Positions 5,564-30,030 of a DNA stretch of 64,000 nt are shown piece by piece. The notes under the pieces are model-generated. The model had not been told where the DNA came from, ran no database searches, and worked only from the letters and a program-made list of their open reading frames with translations. Position 1 is the first letter of the stretch; each line of letters begins with the position of its first letter. The position numbers and the translations under genes were made by a program. Source of the stretch: a virus; the IMG/VR virus record IMGVR_UViG_3300014158_000003, positions 53,320 to 117,319 of that record, one strand, 5' to 3'.

Positions 5564-5630
5564 GGCGCGGGGAAAAGCAGCGGTCACCGGAGCCGGAAGC
5601 TGGTAGGATCCCCGAAAAGGAGCGGCGCCC

Positions 5631-5948
5631 ATGGAGCACATCGTCAGAAACGGTCGCCCGGTCAGGTTCGGCCTGGGCGGCGTCAGTGACGCGGCGGCGC
5701 TCGCGCCCGTCTCCCAGAGAGTCGCCGCGAAGATCGCGTCCGTGGCGGTCGGCGCGCTGACGGTCGGCGTGCTCGGGACCATGGTCGGGGCGGGCATCTC
5801 GCTCCTGGACACCAAGAAGCTGCGCCCCGCCACGGTGGGGCAGGGCGCGGCGGTGGGCGCCGCGCTCGGCGGCGCGATGGGCCTGTTCACGGAGGTGAGC
5901 GTCCGCACCGTCCCCGCTGCGGACGCGAAGGGCGGAGTGTCGACATGA
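5631..5948 (+). CDS. Small two-TM membrane protein
   Basis: AAGGAG RBS, two Gly-rich hydrophobic helices, ATGA overlap with the next gene. Confidence 0.7.
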   Translation: MEHIVRNGRPVRFGLGGVSDAAALAPVSQRVAAKIASVAVGALTVGVLGTMVGAGISLLDTKKLRPATVGQGAAVGAALGGAMGLFTEVSVRTVPAADAKGGVST

Positions 5949-13181: not shown

Positions 13182-14120
13182 CTATGCGAGCCCCGCACTG
13201 ACCCGCTGCCGCTGGATCCGCGTCCGGACGTCCTCCGGGTCGACCCAGCTCGCCGGCGCGCCTGCGGGGCGCCAGTAGACCGAACAGGCCACTAAACCGT
13301 CGGCGATGACGATCCACGCGCCCGCGCGCGGCAGCTCAGGTGGTTGGCCGGACTGCTGCCAGCGCAGAAAGAGGGCGCGTGCAGCCTCCGCCGGAGTGAG
13401 TCCGACCAGCATGGGGGCACCGCACGGCAGGTAGATGTTCGCGGTCCTGCCAGAAAGGACAATGAGTCCGCTTGCTTCGGCGAGCGCGCCGTCGAGGGGG
13501 AACGTGCGGATCCGGATGTCACCGAGCGCGATGTCATGCGACACCGACTCCAGCGGCTCGATCGCCTGCTGGACGAGTCGCGCGAGTCGCAACCGTTCCG
13601 CCGACGTGTCCGGCGACCCGACCGACGGGTGCGCTGGCGAGGATCCCGGCGAGCCACCCGCTGGGTGCCACGGGGGCGCTGCTGCGGGGTGGCCCGGAGG
13701 TTGACCTGGGGACCAGCCTACGGGGTCACCCTGCGGGTAACCTGGGAACTGTCCCGCAGGTTGACCCGCGGTCGGCTCGGGAGAACCTGGCGAGATCCTG
13801 CGGACCATCCAGAGATGGCCCACTCGCTCGACATAGCCGAGCGCCCCAAGCCTGTGCAGCAGCGCGTTGCCCGCGAGCGAGTGGCTCCCGCGCGATCTCG
13901 GGCTCCCGCTGCGGTCCAGTCGGTCCGGCCACATCTTCATCGAGAAGTCGGCCGCCGATAGAGCCCCGCTGCGGAGCACGTCGATCGCTCGACTGACTTC
14001 GGCCGGTTTCAGGTCGTACACGCCATCGCCAGGATAACGCGTGAGAACCTCAGCGCAATACTGGCGTGCTAGGTTGCTGGTCTCTCGGGGGCGCGGGAGG
14101 TTCTCGGAGAACATGGACAT
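13182..14120 (-). CDS. Hypothetical protein with Pro/Gly tetrapeptide-repeat linker
   Basis: Open frame from MSMFSEN. Possible winged-helix N-terminus (LLHRLGALGYVERVGHLW) and AGQP/PGQP/PGHP repeats. Confidence 0.5.
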   Translation of the reverse strand: MSMFSENLPRPRETSNLARQYCAEVLTRYPGDGVYDLKPAEVSRAIDVLRSGALSAADFSMKMWPDRLDRSGSPRSRGSHSLAGNALLHRLGALGYVERVGHLWMVRRISPGSPEPTAGQPAGQFPGYPQGDPVGWSPGQPPGHPAAAPPWHPAGGSPGSSPAHPSVGSPDTSAERLRLARLVQQAIEPLESVSHDIALGDIRIRTFPLDGALAEASGLIVLSGRTANIYLPCGAPMLVGLTPAEAARALFLRWQQSGQPPELPRAGAWIVIADGLVACSVYWRPAGAPASWVDPEDVRTRIQRQRVSAGLA

Positions 14121-14499
14121 CACTGCGCCGCCGAAAGAGCTGCAGATCGCCTTCTGCACCACCTGCAAGGGCCGAACTCCCCACATCCGGGAGACGCTGC
14201 CAGTCAACCTGCATGGCAACGCGCGGGCCCGGTTCGTCCTCGTCAACTACAACAGCCCCGACCAGCTCGACGATCTGCTCCGCGAGCGGCACATGGGCGA
14301 CATCGATAGCGGCCGACTGAGCGTCTACCGGTTCACCGAGCCAGGACCGTTCCGGATGGCGCACGCCAAGAACCTAGCCCATCGATTGGCGATCTCAGAG
14401 GGAGCGGACATCCTCGTGAACCTAGACGCGGACAACTTCGCTGGGCAGGCTTTCGACGCGTACGTGGCCGAGCGGCTCAGCGCACACGTTGACGATTGA
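14113..14499 (+). pseudogene. Truncated GT-A (GT2-like) glycosyltransferase, N-terminal half only
   Basis: IAFCTTCKGR..FVLVNYNSPD..AHAKNLA..ILVNLDADNF (DxD motif). The ORF stops about 20 aa after DxD. Confidence 0.6.
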
Positions 14500-14547
14500 C
14501 GATTCTATTTGCGCGACTCCATAACGTGAGCTAAGGGTTCCTCTGCG

Positions 14548-14664
14548 ATGAAACGCGCCGGCTCAACAGCCACGTATACCGAGCGGTCCGAAAGGGCTGC
14601 CTGGGACACGTGCGCCGTCGTGATCGGGCGCCCTTTCCAGAGCAATCCGGGTCACACCATGTAG
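14548..14664 (+). CDS. Putative attenuator leader peptide MKRAGSTATYTERSERAAWDTCAVVIGRPFQSNPGHTM (38 aa)
   Basis: ATG 14548 to TAG 14662-14664. It uses 19 amino acids and 31 distinct codons, and the stop abuts alternative hairpins. Confidence 0.65.
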   Translation: MKRAGSTATYTERSERAAWDTCAVVIGRPFQSNPGHTM

Positions 14665-14694
14665 GGCAGCTTCGCGAATACGCAACGTAGCGCG

Positions 14695-14728
14695 AGGCCG
14701 CCCGGAGAAGACCCGAGGCGGCTTTTTT
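14695..14728 (+). terminator. Intrinsic terminator upstream of the tRNA operon, overlapped by an alternative hairpin at 14664-14703
   Basis: AGGCCGCCCGG-AGAAGAC-CCGAGGCGGC followed by TTTTTT, 6 nt before the first tRNA. Confidence 0.8.
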
Positions 14729-14734
14729 CATTTC

Positions 14735-14812
14735 GGGTCGAGCGCTGGGACGCGACGGTGTCTGTAAAACACTGGCTTTCATGCTCGCTGGGTTCGATTC
14801 CCAGGCGACCCA
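14735..14812 (+). tRNA. tRNA-Tyr(GTA)
   Basis: GGGTCG/CGACCC acceptor, loop CTGTAAA, TTCGATT T-loop. Confidence 0.75.
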
Positions 14813-14859
14813 CGAGGAGAGGAGGACACGATGAAACGCACCGGTCCAAAAGAAAGCGA

Positions 14860-14931
14860 GGGACGTTAGCTCCAGGGCGGAGCGGCAGCCTTTTAAGCTG
14901 CGCGGGCCGGGTTCGATCCCCGGGCGTCCCA
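14860..14931 (+). tRNA. tRNA-Lys(TTT)
   Basis: GCAGC-CTTTTAA-GCTGC anticodon arm, GTTCGATCC. Confidence 0.85.
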
Positions 14932-14941
14932 CGACCCACGC

Positions 14942-15012
14942 GCGCCGGTAGCTCGAAGGTCGAGCAGGTGGCTCTTAACCACTCGGCGAGAGTTCGATTC
15001 TCTCTCGGCGCA
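14942..15012 (+). tRNA. tRNA-Lys(CTT)
   Basis: GGTGG-CTCTTAA-CCACT, GTTCGATTC. Confidence 0.85.
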
Positions 15013-15013
15013 C

Positions 15014-15080
15014 TGGGGATTCGATGGTCGACAGGTGGTCTCTGAAGCCGCCGACGGTGGTTCGATTCCACCATCCCCAA
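15014..15080 (+). tRNA. tRNA-Gln(CTG), short D-arm
   Basis: TGGGGAT/ATCCCCA acceptor, loop CTCTGAA. Confidence 0.7.
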
Positions 15081-15084
15081 CCGA

Positions 15085-15121
15085 TGGCCCGACGCACACG
15101 GGCTATTCGCTCCTTGACAAC
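15085..15121 (+). promoter_or_regulatory. boxB-like hairpin plus boxA-like antitermination element
   Basis: TGGCCCG-ACGCACA-CGGGCTA hairpin followed by CGCTCCTTGACAAC (rrn boxA consensus TGCTCTTTAACA). Confidence 0.55.
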
Positions 15122-15203
15122 CTGGACGCACGTGACGCGCGGGCGCGAGCTCGCGGGCGGTCTCTGCGAAGTCACGACGCGCGGGCACGTAGCCGCGCAA
15201 CAT

Positions 15204-15275
15204 TGCGATGCAGCATGAAGGTCATGCGCCCGGCTGTTAACCGGAGAGAAGCGGGTTCGACTCCTGCCTTCGCAG
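15204..15275 (+). tRNA. tRNA-Asn(GTT)
   Basis: CCGG-CTGTTAA-CCGG, GTTCGACTC. Confidence 0.8.
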
Positions 15276-15281
15276 CTCGAC

Positions 15282-15350
15282 GCCGTCTTGTACCTGGGGT
15301 CAACGCGCTCTCGTAAGGCGCGTGGCGGGGTTCGAATCCCCGAGGCGGCT
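15282..15350 (+). tRNA. tRNA-Thr(CGT), degenerate D-arm
   Basis: GCGCT-CTCGTAA-GGCGC, GTTCGAATC. Confidence 0.7.
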
Positions 15351-15355
15351 CTCAC

Positions 15356-15428
15356 GTCCCGTTCGACTTCTTGGGCAGGTCGCCGGATTCTCGATCCGGA
15401 CAGAGGGGTTCGAATCCCCTACGGGACG
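15356..15428 (+). tRNA. tRNA-Glu(CTC)
   Basis: GTCCCGT/ACGGGAC acceptor, CCGGA-TTCTCGA-TCCGG. Confidence 0.85.
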
Positions 15429-15433
15429 CTCTT

Positions 15434-15505
15434 GGTCCGCTTTCTCCTGGTGGGGTGGTCGGATTTTCAACTCGACTTCGACGGGTTCGATCCCCGTGCG
15501 GATCA
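15434..15505 (+). tRNA. tRNA-Glu(TTC), degenerate
   Basis: GGTCCGC/GCGGATC acceptor, loop TTTTCAA, GTTCGATCC. Confidence 0.65.
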
Positions 15506-15516
15506 CGAAGTAGTAC

Positions 15517-15589
15517 GCCGCGAGAGCTGGTGAGGTCATAGCGCCCGGTTGAAGCCCGGGAGAACTCCGCTCGATACGGAGTCGCGGCA
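15517..15589 (+). tRNA. tRNA-Phe(GAA)
   Basis: GCCGCGA/TCGCGGC acceptor, CCCGG-TTGAAGC-CCGGG, variant T-loop CTCGATA. Confidence 0.75.
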
Positions 15590-15600
15590 CGAAGTGGTAT

Positions 15601-15672
15601 CAGGGTGAGGTGTTTGTGGTAGCACGCTCCGTTCGGGCCGGAGTGGTGCGGGTTCGACTCCCGCCGCCCTGA
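15601..15672 (+). tRNA. tRNA-Pro(CGG)
   Basis: CTCCG-TTCGGGC-CGGAG, GTTCGACTC. Confidence 0.8.
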
Positions 15673-15674
15673 CT

Positions 15675-15748
15675 GTGACCGTGGTGTAGTGGTTTCTGCA
15701 CGGCTGGTTGTGGCCCAGCAGGTACGAGTTCAATCCTCGTCGGTCACC
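15675..15748 (+). tRNA. tRNA-His(GTG)
   Basis: GTGACCG/CGGTCAC acceptor, C discriminator, GCTGG-TTGTGGC-CCAGC. Confidence 0.85.
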
Positions 15749-15752
15749 CCAC

Positions 15753-15824
15753 CTCCTCGTCCCGCCGGATGCGGGCGGCGCACTCCTAAGGCGCACGTGC
15801 CGGGTCCGACTCCCGGCGAGGAGA
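15753..15824 (+). tRNA. tRNA-Arg(CCT)
   Basis: CTCCTCG/CGAGGAG acceptor, loop CTCCTAA, T-loop TCCGACT. Confidence 0.65.
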
Positions 15825-15830
15825 CGAAAT

Positions 15831-15903
15831 GCCCCGTGACGCGCCTGGTGGCGCGGTCAGCTTGTCACGCTGCGCGAGACGGATTCGATTTCCGTACGGG
15901 GCG
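15831..15903 (+). tRNA. tRNA-Asp(GTC)
   Basis: GCCCCGT/ACGGGGC acceptor, CAGC-TTGTCAC-GCTG, G discriminator. Confidence 0.75.
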
Positions 15904-15911
15904 CTGCGCCT

Positions 15912-15979
15912 GGGTCCATGCATCGGATGCAGCTCGGTCTCCAAAACCGAGGATGAGGGTTCGACTCCTTCTGGGCCCG
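15912..15979 (+). tRNA. tRNA-Trp(CCA), short D-arm
   Basis: TCGGT-CTCCAAA-ACCGA, GTTCGACTC. Confidence 0.75.
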
Positions 15980-15989
15980 CGAAGTAAAC

Positions 15990-16060
15990 GGGCTGCTCGT
16001 CCAACGCGAGGACACCGCTTTCGCACTGCGGAGATGGGGGTTGGATTCCCCCGCGGTCCA
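15990..16060 (+). tRNA. tRNA-Ala(CGC)
   Basis: GGGCTGC/GCGGTCC acceptor with G3:U70, loop TTCGCAC. Confidence 0.7.
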
Positions 16061-16068
16061 CTGGCTTT

Positions 16069-16139
16069 GCCCATGTCCGACGGTCGGGCTCCTCCTCGGT
16101 AAGGAGGCGCTGCGGGTTCAACTCCCGACGTGGGCTCCA
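16069..16139 (+). tRNA. tRNA-Thr(GGT), encoded CCA
   Basis: CCTCC-TCGGTAA-GGAGG, GTTCAACTC. Confidence 0.65.
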
Positions 16140-16141
16140 AC

Positions 16142-16209
16142 GCCGATCGGTCCAGGGACCACGGCCCCTTTGTATGGGCCACAGACGCGTTCGATTCGCG
16201 TGATCGGCT
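16142..16209 (+). tRNA. tRNA-Thr(TGT), irregular anticodon arm
   Basis: GCCGATC/GATCGGC acceptor, GGCCC-CTTTGTAT-GGGCC. Confidence 0.6.
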
Positions 16210-16213
16210 CCGT

Positions 16214-16284
16214 GCGGGTGTAGGTGACGGTCACCGGCGCGCCTTCCAAGCGTTGCTACCCGGGTTCGATTCCCGGCATCCGCT
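16214..16284 (+). tRNA. tRNA-Gly(TCC)
   Basis: GCGGGTG/CATCCGC acceptor, loop CTTCCAA, U discriminator. Confidence 0.8.
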
Positions 16285-16298
16285 CTGACGCTATTTGC

Positions 16299-16370
16299 GC
16301 GGGCGAGTCGGCAAGGTGCCGAGCGTGGTTGCCATCCACGTCCAGGCGAGTTCGATTCTCGTCGCCCGCT
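16299..16370 (+). tRNA. tRNA-Gly(GCC)
   Basis: GCGGGCG/CGCCCGC acceptor, CGTGG-TTGCCAT-CCACG. Confidence 0.8.
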
Positions 16371-16375
16371 CTAGT

Positions 16376-16444
16376 GAGCCGATCTTCCGGCGAAGGACGC
16401 TGATTGCAACCTAGCGAAGCCCGGTTCAACTCCGGGTCGGCTCT
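16376..16444 (+). tRNA. tRNA-Cys(GCA)
   Basis: GAGCCGA/TCGGCTC acceptor, loop TTGCAAC, U discriminator. Confidence 0.7.
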
Positions 16445-16476
16445 CCGGGCGAGGCGCAGCGATGCGCCGAGCCTGC

Positions 16477-16547
16477 GCGCTCGTCCCGGCGGATCCGGGC
16501 ATGGCACTTCTAAGGCCGTTGACTCGTTTCGACTACGAGCGAGCGTT
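16477..16547 (+). tRNA. tRNA-Arg(TCT), degenerate
   Basis: GCGCTCG/CGAGCGT acceptor, loop CTTCTAA, TTCGACT. Confidence 0.6.
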
Positions 16548-16549
16548 CC

Positions 16550-16622
16550 CTCGTCGTTCCGGCGGATTTCCGGACCGGAGTTTCCGAAACTTCGTGCCCG
16601 GGTCCGACTCCCGGCGACGAGA
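16550..16622 (+). tRNA. tRNA-Arg(CCG)
   Basis: CTCGTCG/CGACGAG acceptor, GGAGT-TTCCGAA-ACTTC. Confidence 0.65.
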
Positions 16623-16623
16623 C

Positions 16624-16693
16624 CTCCCTGCCAGCGGACCTGGCGTCGACGCTACGAACGTTGATTGCGGCCGTTCAACTCGGTCCAGGGAGA
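16624..16693 (+). tRNA. tRNA-Arg(ACG)
   Basis: CTCCCTG/CAGGGAG acceptor, CGACG-CTACGAA-CGTTG. Confidence 0.7.
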
Positions 16694-16694
16694 C

Positions 16695-16770
16695 CGCGGG
16701 GTGGCGTAGATTTAGTCGCCAGGTGGGCCCATAACCCTCCCGATGCCGGATGCAACACCGGTCTCCGCAA
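16695..16770 (+). tRNA. Initiator-type tRNA-fMet(CAT), degenerate T-loop
   Basis: CGCGGGG start with C1:A72 mismatch, GGG-CCCATAA-CCC anticodon stem. Confidence 0.65.
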
Positions 16771-16772
16771 CC

Positions 16773-16842
16773 GCCGACGACGACCGGGATCGAGCGCGCT
16801 CTCATAAGGCGCTGCAGTGGGGTTCGACTCCCCACGTCGGCA
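16773..16842 (+). tRNA. tRNA-Met or Ile2 (CAT)
   Basis: GCCGACG/CGTCGGC acceptor, GCGCT-CTCATAA-GGCGC. Confidence 0.75.
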
Positions 16843-16843
16843 C

Positions 16844-16911
16844 CGGAGGATACCTGGCGGGAGCATGCGCCCTACAAGCGCGAGCGCGGGGTCCGATTCC
16901 CCGGCCTCCGA
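16844..16911 (+). tRNA. tRNA-Val(TAC), degenerate
   Basis: CGGAGG/CCTCCG acceptor, GCGC-CCTACAA-GCGC. Confidence 0.55.
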
Positions 16912-16912
16912 C

Positions 16913-16991
16913 CGGACGCGTGCCTAAGCCGGCGGTCCCGGCGCACGTCTTATGAGCGTGTGGCTCGAGGGTTCAACTCCTGCGCGTCCGA
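16913..16991 (+). tRNA. tRNA-Ile(TAT)-like
   Basis: CGGACGC/GCGTCCG acceptor, CACGT-CTTATGA-GCGTG, GTTCAACTC. Confidence 0.55.
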
Positions 16992-16997
16992 CTCAAT

Positions 16998-17069
16998 GCG
17001 AGGCATGGCTGCTGGTGCAGCCACCGGCTCGACACGCCGGCTAGGAGGGTTCGATCCCCTCGCCTCGCA
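16998..17069 (+). tRNA. tRNA-Val(GAC)
   Basis: GCGAGGC/GCCTCGC acceptor, CCGGC-TCGACAC-GCCGG. Confidence 0.7.
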
Positions 17070-17070
17070 C

Positions 17071-17143
17071 CCCGCCCAGAGGCCCGGTTGGCCTGCGATT
17101 GCTGATAACGATCGCGCGCTGCGTTCAACTCGCAGTGGGCGGA
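17071..17143 (+). tRNA. tRNA-Ile(GAT)
   Basis: CCGCCCA/TGGGCGG acceptor, GATTG-CTGATAA-CGATC. Confidence 0.7.
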
Positions 17144-17167
17144 CAACGTGCTAGATCGAACCGCGCG

Positions 17168-17689
17168 ATGGAACCGCAGACGCTCGTGCTCACCCCGCAC
17201 ATGACTCCCCACCGGATCGCCGGTTGGCAGGAAGCGATCGTGCTCGTCTACACGGACAAGGTCGACGTGCTCGAGGAGTACGAGGCGACGATCTCGAGCC
17301 CGTCGGTGACGTTGCAGGTGCCCGCGGTGCTGCGCCTGCGCAAGGAGATGTCGCTCTTCAAGAAGGGCACGAAGTACAGCCCAGCGAACGTCATGCTCCG
17401 TGACAAGCACACGTGCTGCTACTGCGGCCAGAAGAAGCGGCCGCGCGATCTCAACATCGACCACGTCGTCCCGCGCGCGCAGGGCGGCAAGACGACGTGG
17501 CTGAACTGCGTCTCCTCGTGCCCGAGCTGCAACCGCCGCAAGGGGGCGCGCACGCCGGCGCAGGCAGGACTGAAGATGCACTTCCAGCCGCACGTGCCCA
17601 GGCAGTTGCCGTTCGCGCCGCTGCTGCTCATCGCGAAGGTGCCCGACCTATGGGTCCCCTACCTGTCGGCGAGCGCGCAGACGGCGTAG
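17168..17689 (+). CDS. HNH endonuclease (McrA-like) within the tRNA array
   Basis: TLVL..P..I.GWQEAI..PAVLRL..NVMLRDKHTCCYCG..NIDHVVPRAQGG..WLNCVSSCPSCNRRKG. Confidence 0.92.
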   Translation: MEPQTLVLTPHMTPHRIAGWQEAIVLVYTDKVDVLEEYEATISSPSVTLQVPAVLRLRKEMSLFKKGTKYSPANVMLRDKHTCCYCGQKKRPRDLNIDHVVPRAQGGKTTWLNCVSSCPSCNRRKGARTPAQAGLKMHFQPHVPRQLPFAPLLLIAKVPDLWVPYLSASAQTA

Positions 17690-17700
17690 CAAAAAAGTTT

Positions 17701-17791
17701 GGAAGGTACCGCTGAATGGTCGGCAATCCGGTTCGAACCCGGAGGCGTGGTGTAACCCATCACGGGCGTTCGATTCGTCTACTTTCCGCCA
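17701..17791 (+). tRNA. tRNA-Ser(CGA), encoded CCA
   Basis: TCCGG-TTCGAAC-CCGGA, long variable arm, GCCA end. Confidence 0.85.
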
Positions 17792-17804
17792 ACGTGAAAG
17801 CACT

Positions 17805-17889
17805 GGAAGAGGAACCGCGCGGGGCGCGGGCCGGTTTGCTAAACCGCGCGGCGGCATGAGCCGCTCTGGGTCGGGACCAGTCTCTTCCT
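17805..17889 (+). tRNA. tRNA-Ser(GCT), degenerate T-arm
   Basis: GGAAGAG/CTCTTCC acceptor, loop TTGCTAA, long variable arm. Confidence 0.6.
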
Positions 17890-17900
17890 CCGTTGCGTCG

Positions 17901-17983
17901 TGCCTCGAGCGGGACTCGAACCCGCAAGCTCCGAAGAGCGGCGATTTTTAGGACCGCCTGGTCTACCGTTCCTCCACCGAGGC
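17901..17983 (-). tRNA. tRNA-Leu(TAA)
   Basis: Reverse complement GCCTCGG..GCGGT-CCTAAAA-ATCGC, long variable arm, GTTCGAGTC. Confidence 0.8.
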
Positions 17984-17988
17984 CCTCG

Positions 17989-18069
17989 TACTCCGGGCGC
18001 GAGTCGAACGCGCATGCCTTGCGGCACCCGATCTTGAATCGGGCGTGGATACCGTTTCACCACCGGAGC
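17989..18069 (-). tRNA. tRNA-Leu(CAA)
   Basis: Reverse complement CCCGA-TTCAAGA-TCGGG, long variable arm. Confidence 0.85.
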
Positions 18070-18079
18070 ATTCACTTCG

Positions 18080-18162
18080 TACGCGGGGAGGGAGTTGAAC
18101 CCTCACGCCCTCTCGGGCACGACCACCTCAAGGTCGCGTGACTGCCATTCCACCACCCGCGT
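18080..18162 (-). tRNA. tRNA-Leu(GAG)
   Basis: Reverse complement CGACC-TTGAGGT-GGTCG. Its 5' end coincides with the IS target duplication. Confidence 0.85.
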
Positions 18163-18235
18163 GGGTAGTGGGTCAGTTTGAGTTTCGCGTCATGACGCGC
18201 TTGCGTGACCGGTCAAGCATGGTCAAGCTCGCGGC

Positions 18236-18553
18236 ATGGCGATTCTACGTGAGCGTGTGGCGTGGTCGAAGCCGAGGGCTAGGCGTGGTCCGGACCTGAG
18301 CCCAGACGAACAGAAGGCGGTCAAGAAGGCTCTTGCGTTCCTCGCCAAGCGCCACGGCTCCCTCGTGAAGCTGTCCGCCGCGATGGGCCTGAAGCCAGAC
18401 GCGGTCGTCCATGCGGCCAGAGAGCGCGGGAGCGTTACGGCGGGCGTCGCGCTCCGGGCTGCTCGCGCTGCCGGAGTGCCTCTGGAAGACCTCCTAGCCG
18501 GCCGGTGGCCCGAGGCTGGCACTTGCCCTCTCTGCGGCCGGAAGGCAGGATGA
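18236..18553 (+). CDS. Xre-like HTH protein (IS passenger)
   Basis: SLVKLSAAMGLKPDAVVH helix-turn-helix and C-terminal CPLCG. Confidence 0.65.
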   Translation: MAILRERVAWSKPRARRGPDLSPDEQKAVKKALAFLAKRHGSLVKLSAAMGLKPDAVVHAARERGSVTAGVALRAARAAGVPLEDLLAGRWPEAGTCPLCGRKAG

Positions 18554-18557
18554 AGGC

Positions 18558-18824
18558 GTGCCTAAGCGGTCAAGCAAGAGCCCGAAACGCCCGACGGACG
18601 TGAACTCGCTGGCGGCGTCGATCGTCGCGGCGGCAACCGACGAGACGCCCCCGGAAGAGAAGGCCGAGCCGACACCCGAGGAACTGGCGCACGCGGCGGC
18701 CGTGGCCCTCGGAAGGCTCGGTGGATTGAAGGGCGGAAGAGCGCGAGCGGAGAGTCTGTCGAAGAAGAAACGTAGTGACATCGCCAAGAAAGCGGCGAAG
18801 GCGAGGTGGAGCGCAAAGCCGTGA
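18558..18824 (+). CDS. Small basic protein (GRLGGLKGG..RS.IAKKAAKARW type, IS-associated)
   Basis: KRPTDVNSLA..IV..AT and AAVALGRLGGLKGGRARAESLS motifs. Confidence 0.8.
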   Translation: MPKRSSKSPKRPTDVNSLAASIVAAATDETPPEEKAEPTPEELAHAAAVALGRLGGLKGGRARAESLSKKKRSDIAKKAAKARWSAKP

Positions 18825-18875
18825 CGCGTTCGCGATTGACGAGCCGGACCGTTGCGTGATCGCATGCATCGTCAA

Positions 18876-19853
18876 ATGCCTGAGGACGAAAAAAAGCCGC
18901 CGTACATCAAGCAGCCGGCCAAGGACGATCAGCGTCCATTTCAGCGCGTGCTGAGCGAGCACGATCTATTTGCTTCGCAGCGATTGACCCGGCGTGGCCT
19001 GCTTCAAAAAATCGAGGCCGAGACGACCGGTGAGAGGTCCGCCACCATCGGCTTCATTGGCCGCGGCGCGATCGATCCCAGAGACATCACGGCCTTTGGC
19101 GATGTCCTGATGTCGGTCGGTGATGTCGATGTCCTCAACCTGATCATCGATAGTCCTGGCGGCGACGGTTCTACGGCGGAGAAACTGATCGAACTGTGCC
19201 GCGCCTACTGCAAGACTTTCCGGGTAATGATCCCTAACCGCGCAAAGAGTGCGGGCACGATCATCGCGCTCGGCGCCGATGAGATCGTGATGGGGCACTG
19301 CTCCGAATTGGGTCCAATCGACGCGCAGGTGCCTGTGATCGTGGGCGAGATCCCTCGATACATCTCGGCACAGTCGTTTATCGACGCTCAGTTGGATCTA
19401 CAGGCTGAATTTGCAAAGCGCATCGCCGCGAATGGAAAGGCGGACGTGCGCGACATCCTGCAACAACTTGCCGCGCTCAACCTGCCGTTTATTGACCACT
19501 GCAAGAAACTCATGGGCTTCTCGCGTGACGTTGCAGAGAAGAATCTGGCCGCGCACATGTTTCGGGATGTTCAGCCCGATGCCGAGCGCAACCAAAAGGT
19601 TGCAAAGGTCATCAAGGGGCTCTCGCATCCAGAGAACTTTCAGGTGCACTCGCGAATGATCGACGGCAACACGGCCAAAACCAAGCTGGGGCTAAATGTG
19701 CGGCTTCTCGGCAAAGACGACGAACTGTGGGCCGCGATCTGGCAGTACTACATTCGCGCGGACGTTTTTCTCTCGGGCGCCCACGGCCCCGGGGCGTCTA
19801 AGCTGGTCGAATCACGGGTGGAGAGCCTACATCTAACGGCGGAACTGGAATGA
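18876..19853 (+). CDS. SDH_sah / ClpP-crotonase-fold serine protease (IS passenger)
   Basis: LIIDSPGG, AKSAGTIIALGADEIVMG..SELGPIDAQ, HSRMI. Lower GC. Start codon uncertain (18852-18876). Confidence 0.85.
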   Translation: MPEDEKKPPYIKQPAKDDQRPFQRVLSEHDLFASQRLTRRGLLQKIEAETTGERSATIGFIGRGAIDPRDITAFGDVLMSVGDVDVLNLIIDSPGGDGSTAEKLIELCRAYCKTFRVMIPNRAKSAGTIIALGADEIVMGHCSELGPIDAQVPVIVGEIPRYISAQSFIDAQLDLQAEFAKRIAANGKADVRDILQQLAALNLPFIDHCKKLMGFSRDVAEKNLAAHMFRDVQPDAERNQKVAKVIKGLSHPENFQVHSRMIDGNTAKTKLGLNVRLLGKDDELWAAIWQYYIRADVFLSGAHGPGASKLVESRVESLHLTAELE

Positions 19854-20092
19854 CTATTGCTACGCGAGAGGGGACCATGAACCGACCGACCGATAACCAG
19901 AATCCGGATGGCCACAGCTCCGAGGTCAGTCAGGCGCTGGAACTGTTCAACAGTACAGATGCAGCGCGGGACGCCGCTACAGCTCTGGAGGTGATGCGCT
20001 TGGCTGGTGCTAGCCGACGTGCGCGCACAGAACGCCGGTTCAGTCTGTCCATCAGTGGCGGGTATGTTCGATGCGAGGACGACGGCGCTTAA
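19850..20092 (+). CDS. Small hypothetical protein coupled to the protease gene
   Basis: ATGA overlap with the protease stop. Confidence 0.45.
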   Translation: MTIATREGTMNRPTDNQNPDGHSSEVSQALELFNSTDAARDAATALEVMRLAGASRRARTERRFSLSISGGYVRCEDDGA

Positions 20093-20169
20093 AGTCGCTG
20101 TTGACAATTTGTCGCTGTCGATGACCCTACAGGGGCAATGCAGTCACGATGACAGTCAAAGTGAACCGG

Positions 20170-20202
20170 ATGCTTGACTGAGCCTCAACGGTCAAGCATA
20201 CT
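20170..20202 (+). promoter_or_regulatory. Transposase promoter overlapped by a palindromic operator
   Basis: TTGACT-17 nt-CATACT inside ATGCTTGAC-N12-GTCAAGCAT. The ATG lies 7 nt after the -10 element. Confidence 0.65.
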
Positions 20203-20209
20203 GTCCAGT

Positions 20210-21082
20210 ATGAACACGCTGGACGCCGCCACCCGCACCCGCATCGTCTCGGCCCTGGTCGAGGGGAACTCGATCCGCGCGACGTGCCGCATGACCGGCG
20301 CGGCGAAGGGCACCGTCTTGAAGCTCCTGGCGGACCTCGGCGCCGCCTGCCGCGCGTACCACGACGCGAACGTGCGCGGCCTGCACTGCAAGCGGCTCCA
20401 GTGCGACGAGATCTGGTCCTTCTGCGGCGCCAAGGACAAGAATGTCCTGCCCGACGAGGAAGGCTTCGGGCGCGGCTCGATCTGGACGTGGACCGCGCTC
20501 GACGCGGACACGAAGCTGATCGCCGGCTACCACATCGGCACGCGCGACGCTGGCTGCGCCTACGAGTTCATGACCGACCTCGCGTCACGCATCGAGACGC
20601 GCGTGCAGCTCACGACCGACGGACACAAGGCGTACATCAACGCGGTCGCCGACGCGTTCGGGCCGTCGAATATCGACTACGCGATGCTCGTGAAGCTGTT
20701 TGGCGAGACGCCGGCCGGCGCAGGTCGCTACAGCCCGCCCGCGTGCATCGGGATCGAGATGCGCCCGATCATGGGCGAGCCGGACATGGAGCACGTGTCG
20801 ACCTCGTACGTCGAACGCCAGAACCTCACGATGCGGATGTCGATGCGCCGGTTCACGCGGCTCACGAACGCGTTCTCGAAGAAGTGCGAGAACCTCGCGC
20901 ACGCGGTCGCGCTCCACTTCATGCATTACAACTTCTGCCGCGTGCACCAGACGCTCCGCGTGACGCCGGCCATGGCCGCGGGGCTCACGGATCATGTGTG
21001 GGAGATCGGCGAATTGATCGCGCTCATGCCGAAGCCGGTCGCGAAGCCGTGGGGGAGCGTGAAGCGCGCGGCGGTCGCCTGA
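20210..21082 (+). CDS. IS1-family DDE transposase
   Basis: HTH (LVEGNSIRATCRMTG), QCDEIWSF, LTTDG, TSYVERQNLTMR..RRFTRLTNAFSKK, YNFCRVH..TPAMAAG. Confidence 0.93.
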   Translation: MNTLDAATRTRIVSALVEGNSIRATCRMTGAAKGTVLKLLADLGAACRAYHDANVRGLHCKRLQCDEIWSFCGAKDKNVLPDEEGFGRGSIWTWTALDADTKLIAGYHIGTRDAGCAYEFMTDLASRIETRVQLTTDGHKAYINAVADAFGPSNIDYAMLVKLFGETPAGAGRYSPPACIGIEMRPIMGEPDMEHVSTSYVERQNLTMRMSMRRFTRLTNAFSKKCENLAHAVALHFMHYNFCRVHQTLRVTPAMAAGLTDHVWEIGELIALMPKPVAKPWGSVKRAAVA

Positions 21083-21086
21083 TCGG

Positions 21087-21479
21087 TCAACGCTGCGGCA
21101 CCTTTGCCTTGAAGCCTCGCGGGGTGAATTGCGAACGGTGGAGCCCGATCCGCATCCTAGATAGGAGCGCGTCTGCAATGCACGTCTGTTTGCGGCCTGG
21201 TTGCAACGTATCGGTGTCCCCGGCCTCTACCTCTCGAAGGCCTCGGTAGAACACGTAGCTTTCGTGGGTGATGAACGGGTGCGCGTCCGGATCGCCGGGG
21301 CGAAGGATGCACGAGCGGTCCACGAACCTATCCACCGTCGTGACGTTCACGATCGTGGCGCACACCGCGAGCGAATAGTCGGGCGTGTAGACAGCCAGGA
21401 CGACCCACAGGTGATCGACGACCGCCGTCTTCGACGGGTTGAGCAGAAACGCATCCCCCGCCTCGACGGTTCCCCTCAC
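21087..21479 (-). CDS. Putative PemK/MazF-like toxin partner of the Panacea antitoxin
   Basis: GDAFL..HLWVVL..VNVTT..CIL..HPFITHESYV. GTGA overlap with the antitoxin gene. Confidence 0.5.
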   Translation of the reverse strand: MRGTVEAGDAFLLNPSKTAVVDHLWVVLAVYTPDYSLAVCATIVNVTTVDRFVDRSCILRPGDPDAHPFITHESYVFYRGLREVEAGDTDTLQPGRKQTCIADALLSRMRIGLHRSQFTPRGFKAKVPQR

Positions 21480-22051
21480 GACGAATGGATCAACCTATCG
21501 ACTGCTGCGAGATACTTTGCGCGCTTGGCGCGATCGCTGATTGCTTCGTCGTTCTCGCCGACCGCGCGGAGAATGTCAGCGGCCGGCAATGGTGCAACCT
21601 TCGCGGGCTTGGGGTGCTTCCACTCCGGAAGCCCGTGGACCACGTCGATCAGATGCGTGTATGAAACACGCTTATACTTCTTCGCGAGATCTGTCAGAAC
21701 GCCGACGTCGTAATCCGAAAGCTGATCGTCGCCCGGGTCCTCTACAAGCTCGACGTTGTAGCCTTGGGTGCGGATGCAGTGGTCCCAAAGACTGTCGGCG
21801 ACCTCGACCTCCCCCTTGATGCAGTTGTAGACCTCACTCAGAACAGGCCCGTTCGCCATGGACACGAACGTAGAGCCGGTGATCGGCTGACCGGTCTCGA
21901 TCAGCGATTGCCTGTCGGCGAGGTACAGCTCCTTCAGGATGGACGTGTAGTTCTCGGTACCACCAGCCTCGCGCAGGAGAACGGCAGCAGCTTGCACGGC
22001 TCGACGTTCGTCAAACCGGAACCTGAGTTCGCCCCCCGCTTCCAATAGCAT
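21476..22051 (-). CDS. Panacea (DUF4065/SocA-like) antitoxin
   Basis: ILKELYLADRQSLIETGQPITG..FVSMANGPV..LS..D..L..H..PEW. Confidence 0.85.
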   Translation of the reverse strand: MLLEAGGELRFRFDERRAVQAAAVLLREAGGTENYTSILKELYLADRQSLIETGQPITGSTFVSMANGPVLSEVYNCIKGEVEVADSLWDHCIRTQGYNVELVEDPGDDQLSDYDVGVLTDLAKKYKRVSYTHLIDVVHGLPEWKHPKPAKVAPLPAADILRAVGENDEAISDRAKRAKYLAAVDRLIHSS

Positions 22052-22192
22052 CGTCAACCACCATCTACCGATCCGCGCCTGCCCACGCGTTCAGGCTAAC
22101 GCTAACGTATGACATCTGCAAGCCTCAATGCTTGAGCGGTCACGCAACGCGCCGCGTCAGCCCAACTCAAACTGACCCACTACCCCCGCGTG

Positions 22193-22260
22193 TCCGGGCC
22201 GAGGGGATCGAACCCTCTTCGCCGGATTCAAAATCCGGCTCCCCACCATGGGTGGCCCGA
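22193..22260 (-). tRNA. tRNA-Gln(TTG), short D-arm
   Basis: Reverse complement CCGGA-TTTTGAA-TCCGG, GTTCGATCC. Confidence 0.75.
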
Positions 22261-22261
22261 G

Positions 22262-22344
22262 TGCGTTGGGAGGGAGTTGAACCCTCACGACCTTGCGGTC
22301 ACTGCGGTCTGAACGCAGCGCGGATACCGTTTCGCCACCAACGC
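22262..22344 (-). tRNA. tRNA-Leu(CAG)
   Basis: Reverse complement GCGTTGG/CCAACGC acceptor, CTGCG-TTCAGAC-CGCAG, long variable arm. Confidence 0.85.
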
Positions 22345-22456
22345 GCGTGACTCTGTCACCAGCCCCTATAAGGGCAGGACAAGACGCAAGCGTTGCGATA
22401 GGCGGAACGTGTGCACGACGGGGATAACACTGACACGTCTCCGAGCAGCGCGCAAG

Positions 22457-22810
22457 CTACGCCCCCTCGATCGCGCCCCCGCGGACGTGGAAGTGCGCGC
22501 CGCACCCATCCCCGGTGAGCCGGACGCTCGACGAGCCGGCGACGAGCGTCAGGTCGTCGAGGCTCGTTCCCACAAATTCCCACCGGCCCGGCTTCGGGTC
22601 AACGTCGGGCGGCACGCGCGGGCGCCAGCAGATGACCGCGTGCGTGCCGACTCGGCCGCCGTTGGCCTCGAAACACTTGGGGCAGTAGAAACACACCCCG
22701 TCGGCGTCCTCGATGCGGTCGACGACGCGGTGGCCCTCGCCGCCGTCGACGACCTCGCGGCGGATGAACCCGAAGCAGTCGTCGGCGTCGACGAGGTCGC
22801 GGAGCCTCAC
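22457..22810 (-). CDS. Small Cys/His phage protein (DUF6527-like)
   Basis: FYCPKC..H..W.F.GT..DLTL..SV..C..HFHVRGG.I. Confidence 0.6.
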   Translation of the reverse strand: MRLRDLVDADDCFGFIRREVVDGGEGHRVVDRIEDADGVCFYCPKCFEANGGRVGTHAVICWRPRVPPDVDPKPGRWEFVGTSLDDLTLVAGSSSVRLTGDGCGAHFHVRGGAIEGA

Positions 22811-23055
22811 TCGTCGGCCTCCAGCTTGTCGAGTCGCGCGATCTGGTCGCACAGTCGCCTGCGCGCGCAGCGCCAGGAGCAGGCGTCGAAGTGCTCGCTC
22901 GCCGACGCGCGCTCTCCAGACCGACCGTCCGCAACCGACAGCATCACGATGAGGCCGTTCGTGTTGCGCGGGGAGGTCACCGCGATGGAGTTCCCGCAGA
23001 CCGCGCACGCAATCGGCTCGGCCTCGCGAGCGACGGGGGACCCCTTGCGCCTCAT
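22807..23055 (-). CDS. Small Zn-finger hypothetical protein
   Basis: CAVCG..ACSWRC, with 4-nt overlaps to both neighbours. Confidence 0.55.
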   Translation of the reverse strand: MRRKGSPVAREAEPIACAVCGNSIAVTSPRNTNGLIVMLSVADGRSGERASASEHFDACSWRCARRRLCDQIARLDKLEADE

Positions 23056-23462
23056 CGCGCCTTTGGGCGCCTCGCCAGCCCCTCGCGCACCCCCTGCGTC
23101 ACGAGCGTGAGCTCCTTCGGGCTCAGCGTGGCGCACGTCGCGATGAGCCTGGTGACCGTGCGCGCGCTCACGGCCGTCCCGGCGCGCTCCGGGTGGGGCG
23201 CCACCGGCGGCAGCTTGGGTAGCGGAGGCAGCTTGGTCTCGTCGATCTTGCCCGCGGCGTCGTGGGGCACGCTCACCTTGAGCGTGCCCTTCGCGATCCC
23301 GGCGCGCACGCCGGCCGTGACGGCCGCGAGCTCCGGGTCGTTGAGCGAGAGCGCCATCGCGACGCAGTGGGCGACGAGCGCGAGGTCGGGGTCCACGCGG
23401 GCGGTCTTCTTCTTCGCGCGGATCGCTTCCCGGAAGGCGGTGACGGCGGCGGATTCGGGCAT
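23052..23462 (-). CDS. Hypothetical protein downstream of the CRISPR array
   Basis: ATG 23462 (MPESAAVTAF), GC-rich codon usage. Confidence 0.6.
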   Translation of the reverse strand: MPESAAVTAFREAIRAKKKTARVDPDLALVAHCVAMALSLNDPELAAVTAGVRAGIAKGTLKVSVPHDAAGKIDETKLPPLPKLPPVAPHPERAGTAVSARTVTRLIATCATLSPKELTLVTQGVREGLARRPKAR

Positions 23463-23499
23463 GCCTGGGAGGGTAGCACCGTGCACAGCCGCCCGCAGT

Positions 23500-24993
23500 C
23501 GGCACTTGCCCGAGGCGCCGCGATGCCGTAGCCACACGGGAAAGGAAGAAATACTCCGACGCCTCTACCCTAGCCGCGATCTCCGAGGCGCCGCGGTGCC
23601 GCAACCATCTGCAGAGCATGAGTGCTGTTCCGGCACCGGAGATCGGGCCGCGATCTCCGAGGCGTCGCGGTGCCGTAGTCACACCAGCCTGTGACCATGG
23701 AGCAGTAGTCGGCGTAGTCGCGATCTTCGAGGCGCCGCGATGCCGCGATACCCGTCCGTCCTCGCGAGTTCAGTAGGTCGCGGTCTCACGAGGCTCCGCG
23801 ATGCCATCATCAACCATCCAGGCCGCCACGGTGCGAGCAGGTCGCGGTCTCAGAGGCGTCGCGATGCCATAGCCACGGCACGGGCGCATCGGTCGTCCGT
23901 GTGGTTGATCAGGTCGCGATCTCCGAGGCGCCGCGATGCCGTAGCCACGAGAGCGAGGTCGACCACTTCGACTCGTGGCTCCAAGTCGCGATCTCCGAGG
24001 CGCCGCGATGCCATAGCCACCCGATCGACGGGTACAAAACTCGCTCGTCCCACTTGGTCGCGATCTCCGAGGCGCCGCGATGCCGTAGCCACACGGGAAA
24101 GGAAGAAATCCTCCGACGCCTCTACCCTAGCCGCGATCTAAGAGGCGCCGCGGTGCGGCAGCCATCTGCAGATCACGAATCAACTCACTCCCGGTCGCGA
24201 TCTTATAGGCGCCGCGATGCCGTAACTACGGGCGCGCCTTGCAGGTCATGACCTGCATCATGCACCGAGCCGCGATCTCCGAGGCGCCGCGATGCCGTAG
24301 CCACTTCGCCGCGCTCGTCGAGACGACGCTCGGCCGGAGCGTGTCGCGATCTCCGAGGCGCCGCGATGCCGTAGCCACAGGATCTGCACGCGCGCGCCAC
24401 GACCCAGCGAAGTCGCGATCTCCGAGGCGCCCCCCGCGCACCCAAATAACCCGCACGCGCCCGTCATTCGTCGACTCTCCTCTTCGGTGGTGGTCTCTTC
24501 GGTAAGTTCTGCAGGACCGCCGGGTCGCGATCTCCGAGGCGCCGCGATGCCGTAGCCACTCGTCACCCATCGCATCAGCCACCTGATGCGCCGTGTCGCG
24601 ATCTCCGAGGCGCCGCGATGCCGTAGCCACCGGCATTGCGATTGAAGCACGCGACCGACTACACGGTGTCGCGATCTCCGAGGCGCCGCGATGCCGTAGC
24701 CACGAGAGCGAGGTCGACCACTTCGATTCGTGGCTCCAAGTCGCGATCTCCGAGGCGCCGCGATGCCGTAGCCACGTCGTCGGGGGCATCAGGATGGCCA
24801 GCGAGGACGCGTCGCGATCTCCGAGGCGCCGCGATGCCGTAGCCACCGGATCTGCGGCTGGCCCGGCGACTGTTCGCTCACCGGGTCGCGATCTCCGAGG
24901 CGCCGCGATGCCGTAGCCACGTCGGGATACGACGGTCGACGTTGTGGCGATCAGATTGTCGCGATCTCCGAGGCGCCGCGATGCCGTAGCCAC
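23500..24993 (-). CRISPR. CRISPR array, 21 repeats / 20 spacers. 36-nt repeat GTGGCTACGGCATCGCGGCGCCTCGGAGATCGCGAC (minus strand)
   Basis: Plus-strand repeats start at 23500, 23573, 23647, 23717, 23777, 23841, 23913, 23985, 24057, 24130, 24194, 24269, 24343, 24412 (only 20 nt), 24524, 24595, 24668, 24740, 24811, 24885, 24958. Spacers are mostly 33-39 nt. Repeats are perfect near the cas gene and degenerate distally. Confidence 0.97.
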
Positions 24994-29954: not shown

Positions 29955-30030
29955 GGACCCTGCGGCACGACTCGAACGTGCGGCCCCCGGTTCCGTAGAC
30001 CGGTGCTCTTCCAACTGAGCTACGAGGGTC
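29955..30030 (-). tRNA. Isolated tRNA-Arg(ACG)
   Basis: Reverse complement TAGCTCAGTTGGAAGAGC D-arm, CCGGT-CTACGGA-ACCGG, GTTCGAGTC. One bulge in the acceptor stem. Confidence 0.85.

Follow-up and report, generated by a model that had tools for sequence, protein, structure and literature searches.

A leucine-free leader reading frame before a leucine-free tRNA operon in an uncultured phage, and a candidate attenuator between them

Why should a short reading frame that encodes 19 amino acids, and omits only leucine (Leu), stand directly before an operon of transfer RNA (tRNA) genes that serves 19 amino acids and also omits Leu? The question is raised by the IMG/VR virus record IMGVR_UViG_3300014158_000003, a 117,319-base record rated complete by CheckV, of which bases 53320-117319 were analyzed as one stretch of 64,000 nucleotides (nt), called the window below and numbered from its own first base. 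The open reading frame (ORF) in question lies at 14548..14664 on the plus strand, and the tRNA array follows at 14735..17891 on the same strand. The pairing of a Leu-free leader with a Leu-free tRNA operon is real and not a product of chance. Judging from the sequence comparisons given here, the ORF probably encodes the leader peptide of an attenuator through which ribosomes control transcription of the plus-strand tRNA operon, and the absence of Leu from the leader is most likely tied to the operon's lack of Leu tRNA genes.

The gene content of the array was established with ARAGORN, which at its default threshold found 23 plus-strand and 5 minus-strand tRNAs in the window and with the option -ps90 found 29 plus-strand tRNAs (14735-17891), six of the array genes appearing only at the relaxed threshold. 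An earlier sequence-only reading of this DNA had counted 31 plus-strand tRNAs; 29 are supported by the tool and all 31 are plausible by eye and synteny, but the two extra genes have weak or no tool support. One of them, a candidate Thr-TGT-like gene (16140-16211) with an 8-base anticodon loop, was reported by ARAGORN only at -ps60 and gave a weak tRNA-clan match (15.8 bits, E 0.79), and the other, a candidate Arg-ACG-like gene (16624-16695), was recognized by eye with no tool match. Syntenic counterparts of both exist in related loci described below, Arg-ACG in L039 and L041 and Thr-TGT in L041. As the same reading had stated, the plus-strand tRNAs cover 19 amino acids and never Leu at every ARAGORN threshold, and no plus-strand Leu tRNA was found. 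All four Leu tRNAs, together with Gln-TTG, were placed on the minus strand by ARAGORN at default settings, again in agreement with that reading: tRNA-Leu TAA, CAA, and GAG at 17900..18162, convergent with the plus-strand array, and tRNA-Gln TTG plus tRNA-Leu CAG at 22192..22344, at the head of the minus-strand unit. A gene for an HNH endonuclease lies inside the array (17168..17689, plus strand; Pfam HNH, E 1.3e-14). Many of the array tRNAs are non-canonical, and several fit the Rfam tRNA-Sec model better than the tRNA model.

The composition of the leader ORF was found to be rare by every comparison made. Its 38 codons, 31 of them distinct, end at a TAG stop codon (14662-14664) and specify each of 19 amino acids one to five times; a codon count agreed with the earlier statements that Leu alone is missing, that the codons ACA/ACG/ACC, GAA/GAG, and CGC/CGG/AGG are present, and that neither AAG nor AGA occurs. 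Attenuator leaders usually show a run or enrichment of codons for one or a few amino acids; none was found in this leader. Among 147,143 stop-free 38-residue windows taken from the six frames of the genome, at least 19 different residues were present in 364 (0.25%), and Leu was the sole missing residue in 3; where exactly 19 amino acids were present, the missing one was Leu in 3 of 325 windows. Windows of 58-68% guanine-plus-cytosine (GC) content contained at least 19 residues in 251 of 47,836 cases, with Leu as the sole missing residue in 3. Stop-free shuffles of the leader itself reached at least 19 residues at frequencies of 0.57% (mononucleotide) and 1.4% (codon-position), and at least 19 residues with no Leu at 0.013% and 0.065%, respectively. 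Taken together, the GC-matched windows and the shuffles put the diversity at 0.5-1.4% and the diversity without Leu at 0.006-0.065%. A rare ORF composition can, however, turn up when many windows are scanned for oddities, and the decision therefore had to rest on relatives.

The elements surrounding the ORF can be described as follows. A promoter-like region (14496..14537, plus strand), located within a 102-base segment designated module A, contains two candidate -35/-10 pairs, 14496-14525 and 14509-14537, which were picked out by eye and by a regular expression for -35-like hexamers with a fixed 17-nt spacer, and the leader ATG stands 23 nt or 10 nt past the end of the -10-like hexamer, depending on the candidate promoter. 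A consensus promoter/terminator scan listed neither of these pairs and missed the terminator. An antiterminator hairpin (14664..14703, plus strand; -26.2 kcal/mol) is predicted to begin exactly at the end of the ORF, its first paired base being the last base of the stop codon. It is followed by an intrinsic terminator (14694..14728, plus strand) composed of a G+C-rich stem at 14694-14725 with one bulge (-20.6 kcal/mol) and a six-T run, which ends 6 nt before tRNA-Tyr. The 3' arm of the antiterminator is the 5' arm of the terminator, with an overlap of 10 bases (14694-14703), and the two hairpins cannot coexist because they share this arm. The minimum free energy fold of the whole leader favors the antiterminator over the terminator, and the segment 14530-14740 folds with z = -3.6, none of 200 dinucleotide shuffles being as stable. 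No 1:2 pause hairpin competing with the antiterminator was seen in the folds. An RcsR1-like match in Rfam (22 bits against a cut-off of 60) was rejected as a family assignment because it is sub-threshold.

Relatives of the leader were sought through several baits. The glycosyltransferase-like gene upstream (14110-14496) led to 8 loci with no more than one tRNA each and no array nearby, phrog_1735 to 15 loci with no more than seven tRNAs each and no array nearby, the gene at 22460-23008 to 3 loci with no tRNA, and the HNH protein alone to the locus L009 only; a 20-base terminator pattern matched 6 contigs, all of which were discarded as generic terminators on inspection. An alignment of 32 HNH homologues, on the other hand, led to 80 IMG/VR loci (L039-L118), and at least 10 plus-strand tRNAs were present in 33 of 82 sources, these being the 80 loci, the window, and L009. 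This HNH endonuclease family sits within the tRNA arrays of many uncultured phages. Leaders of the same layout were found in eight loci (L039, L041, L053, L058, L060, L068, L071, and L073), which makes nine with the window, and the shared order is a promoter-like site, a short ORF, a hairpin shaped like the terminator of the window, an array that starts with tRNA-Tyr and has a similar tRNA order, and the HNH gene. All eight leaders scanned have a -35-like hexamer 35-59 nt ahead of the ATG, and one was recognized by eye in L041. With the fixed 17-nt spacer, a -10-like hexamer ends 6-10 nt before the ATG in seven of the nine leaders (the window, L039, L053, L058, L060, L068, and L071), and the leader mRNAs may be leaderless. 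In L041, the terminator is separated from tRNA-Tyr by an inserted endonuclease-VII-like gene (5757-6600), after which the T-rich tail occurs a second time.

Eight leaders, including that of the window, were folded one by one because insertions and deletions put the stems out of register in an alignment of the eight attenuators; the attenuator of L041 was read only by eye. In all eight folded leaders, the antiterminator begins with a 5' arm that either spans the final two to four sense codons or sets in no more than 1 base from the stop codon; this arm pairs with the 5' arm of the terminator, despite stem sequences that vary from one phage to another. A hairpin with a T-rich tail is present in seven of the eight. 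The peptides themselves have largely diverged, and the short C-terminal motifs that make up most of what they still share fall on the antiterminator stem. All nine leaders nevertheless pack 19 or 20 amino acids into 35-54 codons. The frequency of equally diverse length-matched windows from the same locus is 0.16% for the window, 0.34% for L039, 0.21% for L053, 0.75% for L058, 0.05% for L060, 0.62% for L073, 4.8% for L068, 7.6% for L071, and 2.0% for L041; a Fisher combination over the eight leaders other than L041 gave p = 5e-11, a value to be read with the caution that the leaders are not independent. A composition-blind scan, which called any ORF of 28-62 codons that begins with ATG, stops no more than 50 nt from a hairpin followed by a T-run, and has a tRNA cluster starting no more than 130 nt away, was applied to the 32 remaining loci in which 10 or more plus-strand tRNAs had been counted and returned nine ORFs, seven of which encode at least 19 and eight at least 18 different amino acids, whereas among background ORFs of 25-60 codons at least 19 amino acids occur in 111 of 4,121 (2.7%). 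From these comparisons, we conclude that a leader naming nearly all amino acids is a conserved and selected property of this family of probable attenuators.

Two further loci were looked at and left out of the count. In L009, from an unrelated AT-rich phage, a 29-tRNA array is directly preceded at 5438-5690 by a promoter close to the consensus, a highly structured leader of 190 nt (z = -4.3), and a terminator that competes with another hairpin; a search with its leader gave no match. L054 has at 2096-2230 a 44-codon leader-like ORF without Glu and Pro, and ARAGORN found its array to be without Glu, Leu, Met, and Pro tRNA, but the array is fragmented and the locus is cut, and it was not used as evidence.

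The nine homologous leaders can be divided by the position of the Leu tRNA genes. Five operons have no Leu tRNAs downstream of the leader (the window, L039, L053, L058, and L060), and the Leu genes are set apart in two ways: in the window and L039 they lie on the opposite strand and converge on the operon, and in L053, L058, and L060 they form a cluster upstream of the leader promoter. The leaders of these five operons contain 0, 0, 1, 1, and 1 Leu codons, whereas those of the four operons that include Leu tRNAs contain 3 (L041), 4 (L068), 3 (L071), and 4 (L073). Each of the single Leu codons is CTC, placed two or three codons before the stop within the 5' arm of the antiterminator, and a ribosome stalled at that CTC would, judging from the footprint size given below, still mask the arm. 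In tests that ignore relatedness, the association is significant at the level of leaders (Fisher's exact p = 0.008) and of codons (3/193 against 14/201, p = 0.011), and when the last five codons are left out the counts become 0/168 against 14/181 (p = 1e-4). Among the five leaders with Leu outside the operon, any amino acid other than Leu is absent from one leader at most. In a tree of 24 HNH proteins, the leaders with Leu outside fall into two well-separated and well-supported clades, one with the window, L039, and L041 and the other with L053, L058, and L060, and at least two changes of Leu state are forced. L041 groups with the window and L039 (100/99 support) in the opposite state, with Leu tRNAs in the operon and three Leu codons in the leader. 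The sequence-only reading had proposed that the leader co-evolved to sense just those tRNAs that its operon can replace. The part of this proposal that expects homologous leaders to be related to array content is borne out for Leu, in five of five leaders with Leu outside and four of four with Leu inside, but the match of isoacceptors that was also put forward fails, as discussed below, and sensing is a matter of the mechanism proposed here.

The separate Leu genes have a short ORF of their own. In the window, a Leu-rich ORF of 16 codons starting from GTG (22366..22416, minus strand) includes five Leu residues specified by five different codons, as well as CAA, the codon read by the Gln-TTG of the same unit, and ends 21 nt before tRNA-Leu CAG. 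Counterparts are found upstream of 11329 on the minus strand in L039, before 1764 in L053, between 5921 and 5988 in L058, and before 2228 in L060. A Leu-rich ORF thus stands 5-21 nt before the first Leu tRNA in all five separate Leu clusters, with a Leu share of 15-33%, and among background ORFs of 12-40 codons a Leu share of at least 20% was seen in 16 of 706. In the window and L039, the stop codon of the Leu-rich ORF lies within the loop of a small hairpin.

If an attenuator's leader peptide is encoded at 14548-14664, as seems probable, the attenuator might operate as follows. Transcription would start at the promoter just upstream of the leader. A ribosome protects about 12-15 nt 3' of its A site, and from this known footprint size a ribosome finishing the leader would mask the antiterminator arm. 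A ribosome that reaches the stop codon without delay would therefore sit on the 5' arm of the antiterminator at 14664-14703 and leave the terminator at 14694-14728 free to form, so that the polymerase would stop before tRNA-Tyr. A ribosome stalled earlier for any charged tRNA would allow the antiterminator to form and the operon to be transcribed, and with 19 amino acids in the leader the device would report a shortage of almost any tRNA. Leu would be left out because a stall at Leu would turn on an operon unable to relieve it; the Leu tRNAs and Gln-TTG would be a separate convergent unit with its own Leu-rich short ORF. The sequences show the layout of the elements, its conservation among relatives, and the association of Leu codons in the leader with Leu tRNAs in the operon; from these we infer the translation of the leader, the stall-driven switching, and the selective removal of Leu codons. 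A wider proposal, for and against which we regard the chances as evenly balanced, is that phages of this lineage divide their private tRNA supply between regulons that are sensed independently, the first serving 19 amino acids and the second Leu with Gln-TTG, and that each is headed by a translated short ORF serving as a roster of exactly the amino acids that its unit can supply. Roster and cargo would then co-evolve, the leader losing its Leu codons once the operon has lost its Leu tRNA genes and the Leu-rich ORF traveling with those genes, and the whole might act as a depletion sensor against the cutting of host tRNAs by anticodon nucleases or against shortage, that is, as a regulated counter-defense.

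Several findings weigh against this scheme, and they are best considered together with the explanations that they would favor. The Leu contrast is seen in only two or three independent lineages, and the tree that orders them is that of a possibly mobile HNH gene. Nor is the match between leader and operon reciprocal, since the leader lacks Ser in L058, Cys in L071, and Trp in L041 though the operons carry those tRNAs, and a single missing amino acid that is unlinked to the operon is common, L103, without Trp, being a further case. If real, the rule would be that the leader avoids what the operon cannot supply, rather than that leader equals operon. At the level of codons, the match is no better than in ordinary phage genes: by standard wobble, and with the two candidate tRNAs included, 30 of the 38 leader codons (79%) are readable, and the corresponding share of non-Leu codons is 89% over 59 phage genes called with confidence. 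The other eight (four GCC, GCT, TCA, TCC, and CCT, which include all five Ala codons) have no cognate array tRNA, and a stall at these could not be relieved by the operon either. With tool-called tRNAs only, 11 of the 38 codons are unread and 299 of 344 are readable over eight leaders, although tRNA calling is incomplete in these non-canonical arrays. The agreement between leader codons and array isoacceptors that the sequence-only reading had listed does not stand out, because the array reads 45 of the 61 sense codons. Finally, the hairpin of L073 has no T-run, and no terminator was found after the Leu-rich ORF in any of the five Leu clusters, which leaves a complementary Leu sensor without a mechanism. 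The small number of independent lineages, the missing amino acids unlinked to operon content, and the ordinary codon match would suit an explanation in which the attenuator and its all-amino-acid leader are real but Leu is missing by a chance of history in two lineages, or as a by-product of constraints on the sequence, and not through selection arising from the operon's lack of Leu tRNAs. We consider this unlikely, although it is the most serious of the alternatives: Leu is the missing residue in so few of the windows with exactly 19 amino acids, the association, five of five against four of four, holds despite the divergence of the peptides within clades, L041 is opposite on both counts within the clade of the window, and Leu-rich ORFs accompany every separate Leu cluster.

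The reading frame itself might also be questioned. Most of the ORF is taken up by a very stable hairpin (-55.6 kcal/mol), in which the sequence immediately before the start codon is also paired. The ribosome-binding signal of the leader is ambiguous, being either a weak Shine-Dalgarno-like site 10 nt upstream or that of a leaderless transcript, and open frames of some 40 codons are in themselves no rarity in high-GC DNA. In addition, the promoter-like site and the first 14 leader codons belong to the 102-base module A, which is common to an unrelated cassette free of tRNA genes, and in that cassette the same ATG opens a different frame of 52 codons. The region could accordingly be imagined as a structured RNA that is not translated and contains the ORF by coincidence: it might close the transcript of the gene upstream, as the 3' end and terminator of that gene, or be a small RNA, or form a 5' leader that responds to a protein, a tRNA, or a small molecule. 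This is improbable in our estimation, because the ATG keeps a similar distance from the -35-like hexamer in the eight leaders scanned and, by eye, in L041, the frame is open exactly up to the antiterminator in the eight folded leaders, and 19-20 amino acids are kept in all nine while the sequence changes. The Rfam T-box family, which we take to be RF00230 and which is marked by a stem I with a specifier loop and by a conserved T-box antiterminator sequence, gave no match at E ≤ 1 in 13500-23500 nor at E ≤ 5 in 14480-14740, and no Rfam family fits the leader region (14480-14740) at E up to 5. The thought that the ORF is an accident, which strain variation and the shared 14 codons had suggested, was overturned by the homologous leaders. 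At the other extreme, the ORF might encode a small functional phage protein, the terminator merely ending its transcript. Its position is conserved, and short C-terminal motifs are common within clades, but the strong divergence of the peptides in both sequence and length (35-54 residues) makes this very hard to believe; the conserved C-terminal codons are those of the antiterminator stem, an RNA constraint, and the stop codon is always tied to the alternative hairpins.

Strain variation gives some idea of how the tRNA block is carried. Module A (14489-14590) includes the promoter-like site and the first 14 leader codons, and module B occupies 22383-22534; in near-identical strains, represented by contigs of four lake/freshwater runs and by two JGI contigs, the same two modules flank the 1,526-base cassette without tRNA genes mentioned above. 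A head-to-tail joint, in which the end of module B (22534) is followed by 54 bases and the start of module A (14489), was found in three runs and in contig L037, and the cassettes may perhaps exist in tandem or as circles. The tRNA block thus behaves as an exchangeable cassette between two inward-facing control modules. The minus-strand Leu/Gln unit is split in the window by an IS1-family cargo transposon (18156..22184), in which Pfam recognized an IS1 transposase, an SDH-type protease, and a SocA/Panacea domain. The transposon is missing from strains in runs X8 and X14, whose contigs join across the 4,029 bases with 8 bases common to both sides, and the existence of these strains means that the Leu/Gln unit was once contiguous.

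The tRNA region is set in DNA of 62-76% GC. Tail-fiber-like genes on the plus strand point toward the array, and replication genes for a helicase and an exonuclease approach on the minus strand from the opposite side; the tRNA region is the meeting point of these convergent gene arms. A further tRNA-like gene with the anticodon loop ACG (Arg) lies at 29957-30029 on the minus strand (Rfam tRNA, 47.4 bits), with acceptor-stem mismatches. It was absent from the list of the sequence-only reading and was missed by ARAGORN even at the relaxed threshold. A tRNA-Arg(ACG) stands at the same place in three loci (L012, L013, and L023) that carry relatives of the adjacent phrog_1735 gene. Metagenome runs holding near-identical DNA come from wetland, lake, and freshwater. 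Among GenBank phages, no high-identity match to the array was found, and a distant mode of search gave 14 records with scattered single-tRNA matches, each covering no more than 3% of the query. For most of the large genes of the phage, PHROGs gave no function.

Codon usage, or the replacement of host tRNAs destroyed by defense nucleases, is the usual explanation for the tRNA arrays of phages, and to our knowledge almost nothing has been known about their regulation. If the attenuator proposed here is true, these phages would possess a general gauge of translation speed wired to tRNA production, and the principle of the trp operon would be extended from enzymes to tRNAs. The existence of relatives with Leu outside and Leu inside the operon makes the idea directly testable, because Leu codons added to or removed from the leader should add or remove the response to a shortage of Leu-tRNA. 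A short ORF of 19-20 amino acids with its stop codon at an antiterminator would, moreover, serve as a sequence signature for regulated tRNA operons in metagenomes.

Attenuators with multivalent leaders are well known from amino acid operons, such as the thr leader, which responds to Thr and Ile, and the ilvGMEDA leader, which responds to Ile, Leu, and Val, in addition to trpL, hisL, leuL, and pheL. The element described here resembles them in having a short 5' ORF and a choice between terminator and antiterminator that would be decided by the position of the ribosome, with leader codons that name what is sensed. It differs from them in that the genes behind it are those of phage tRNAs and not of biosynthetic enzymes, that the leader spreads its codons over 19 amino acids, one to five for each, instead of gathering regulatory codons in a run, and that the default state without translation, according to the folds, is the antiterminator, with no competing 1:2 pause hairpin found. 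Another comparison is offered by the ribosome-stalling attenuators that precede antibiotic-resistance genes, namely the erm and cat leaders and the "ribo-regulators" detected by Term-seq. In these, too, a leader ORF signals that ribosomes have slowed in general and thereby unlocks a terminator or ribosome-binding site downstream, but they answer to drug-bound ribosomes at particular peptide motifs, whereas the leader of the window would answer to a shortage of any of 19 aminoacyl-tRNAs. T-box riboswitches, which stand before synthetase or biosynthesis genes and sense uncharged tRNA by direct binding, independently of translation, likewise use a terminator/antiterminator switch to report the state of tRNA, in contrast with the translated leader ORF proposed here.

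The nearest published system that we found is the trn operon of Anabaena sp. PCC 7120, a silent long tRNA array that is reported to be induced by translational stress (PMC8421152, PMC10272220). Its control is described there as acting at the promoter, where the ribbon-helix-helix (RHH) repressor TrcR binds tandem 9-nt direct repeats over the -10 box and the transcription start (PMC8421152, PMC10272220), and the terms attenuat-, leader, and terminator do not occur in PMC8421152. Anabaena thus keeps a many-gene accessory tRNA array off until translation is impaired by means of a promoter repressor, and the phage would do likewise with a leader ORF and a terminator/antiterminator pair. We found no account in the published literature of a leader-peptide attenuator before tRNA genes. 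The mechanism put forward here is that of leader-peptide attenuation, and what would be new is the use of tRNA genes as the cargo and of a leader naming 19 amino acids in place of a codon run.

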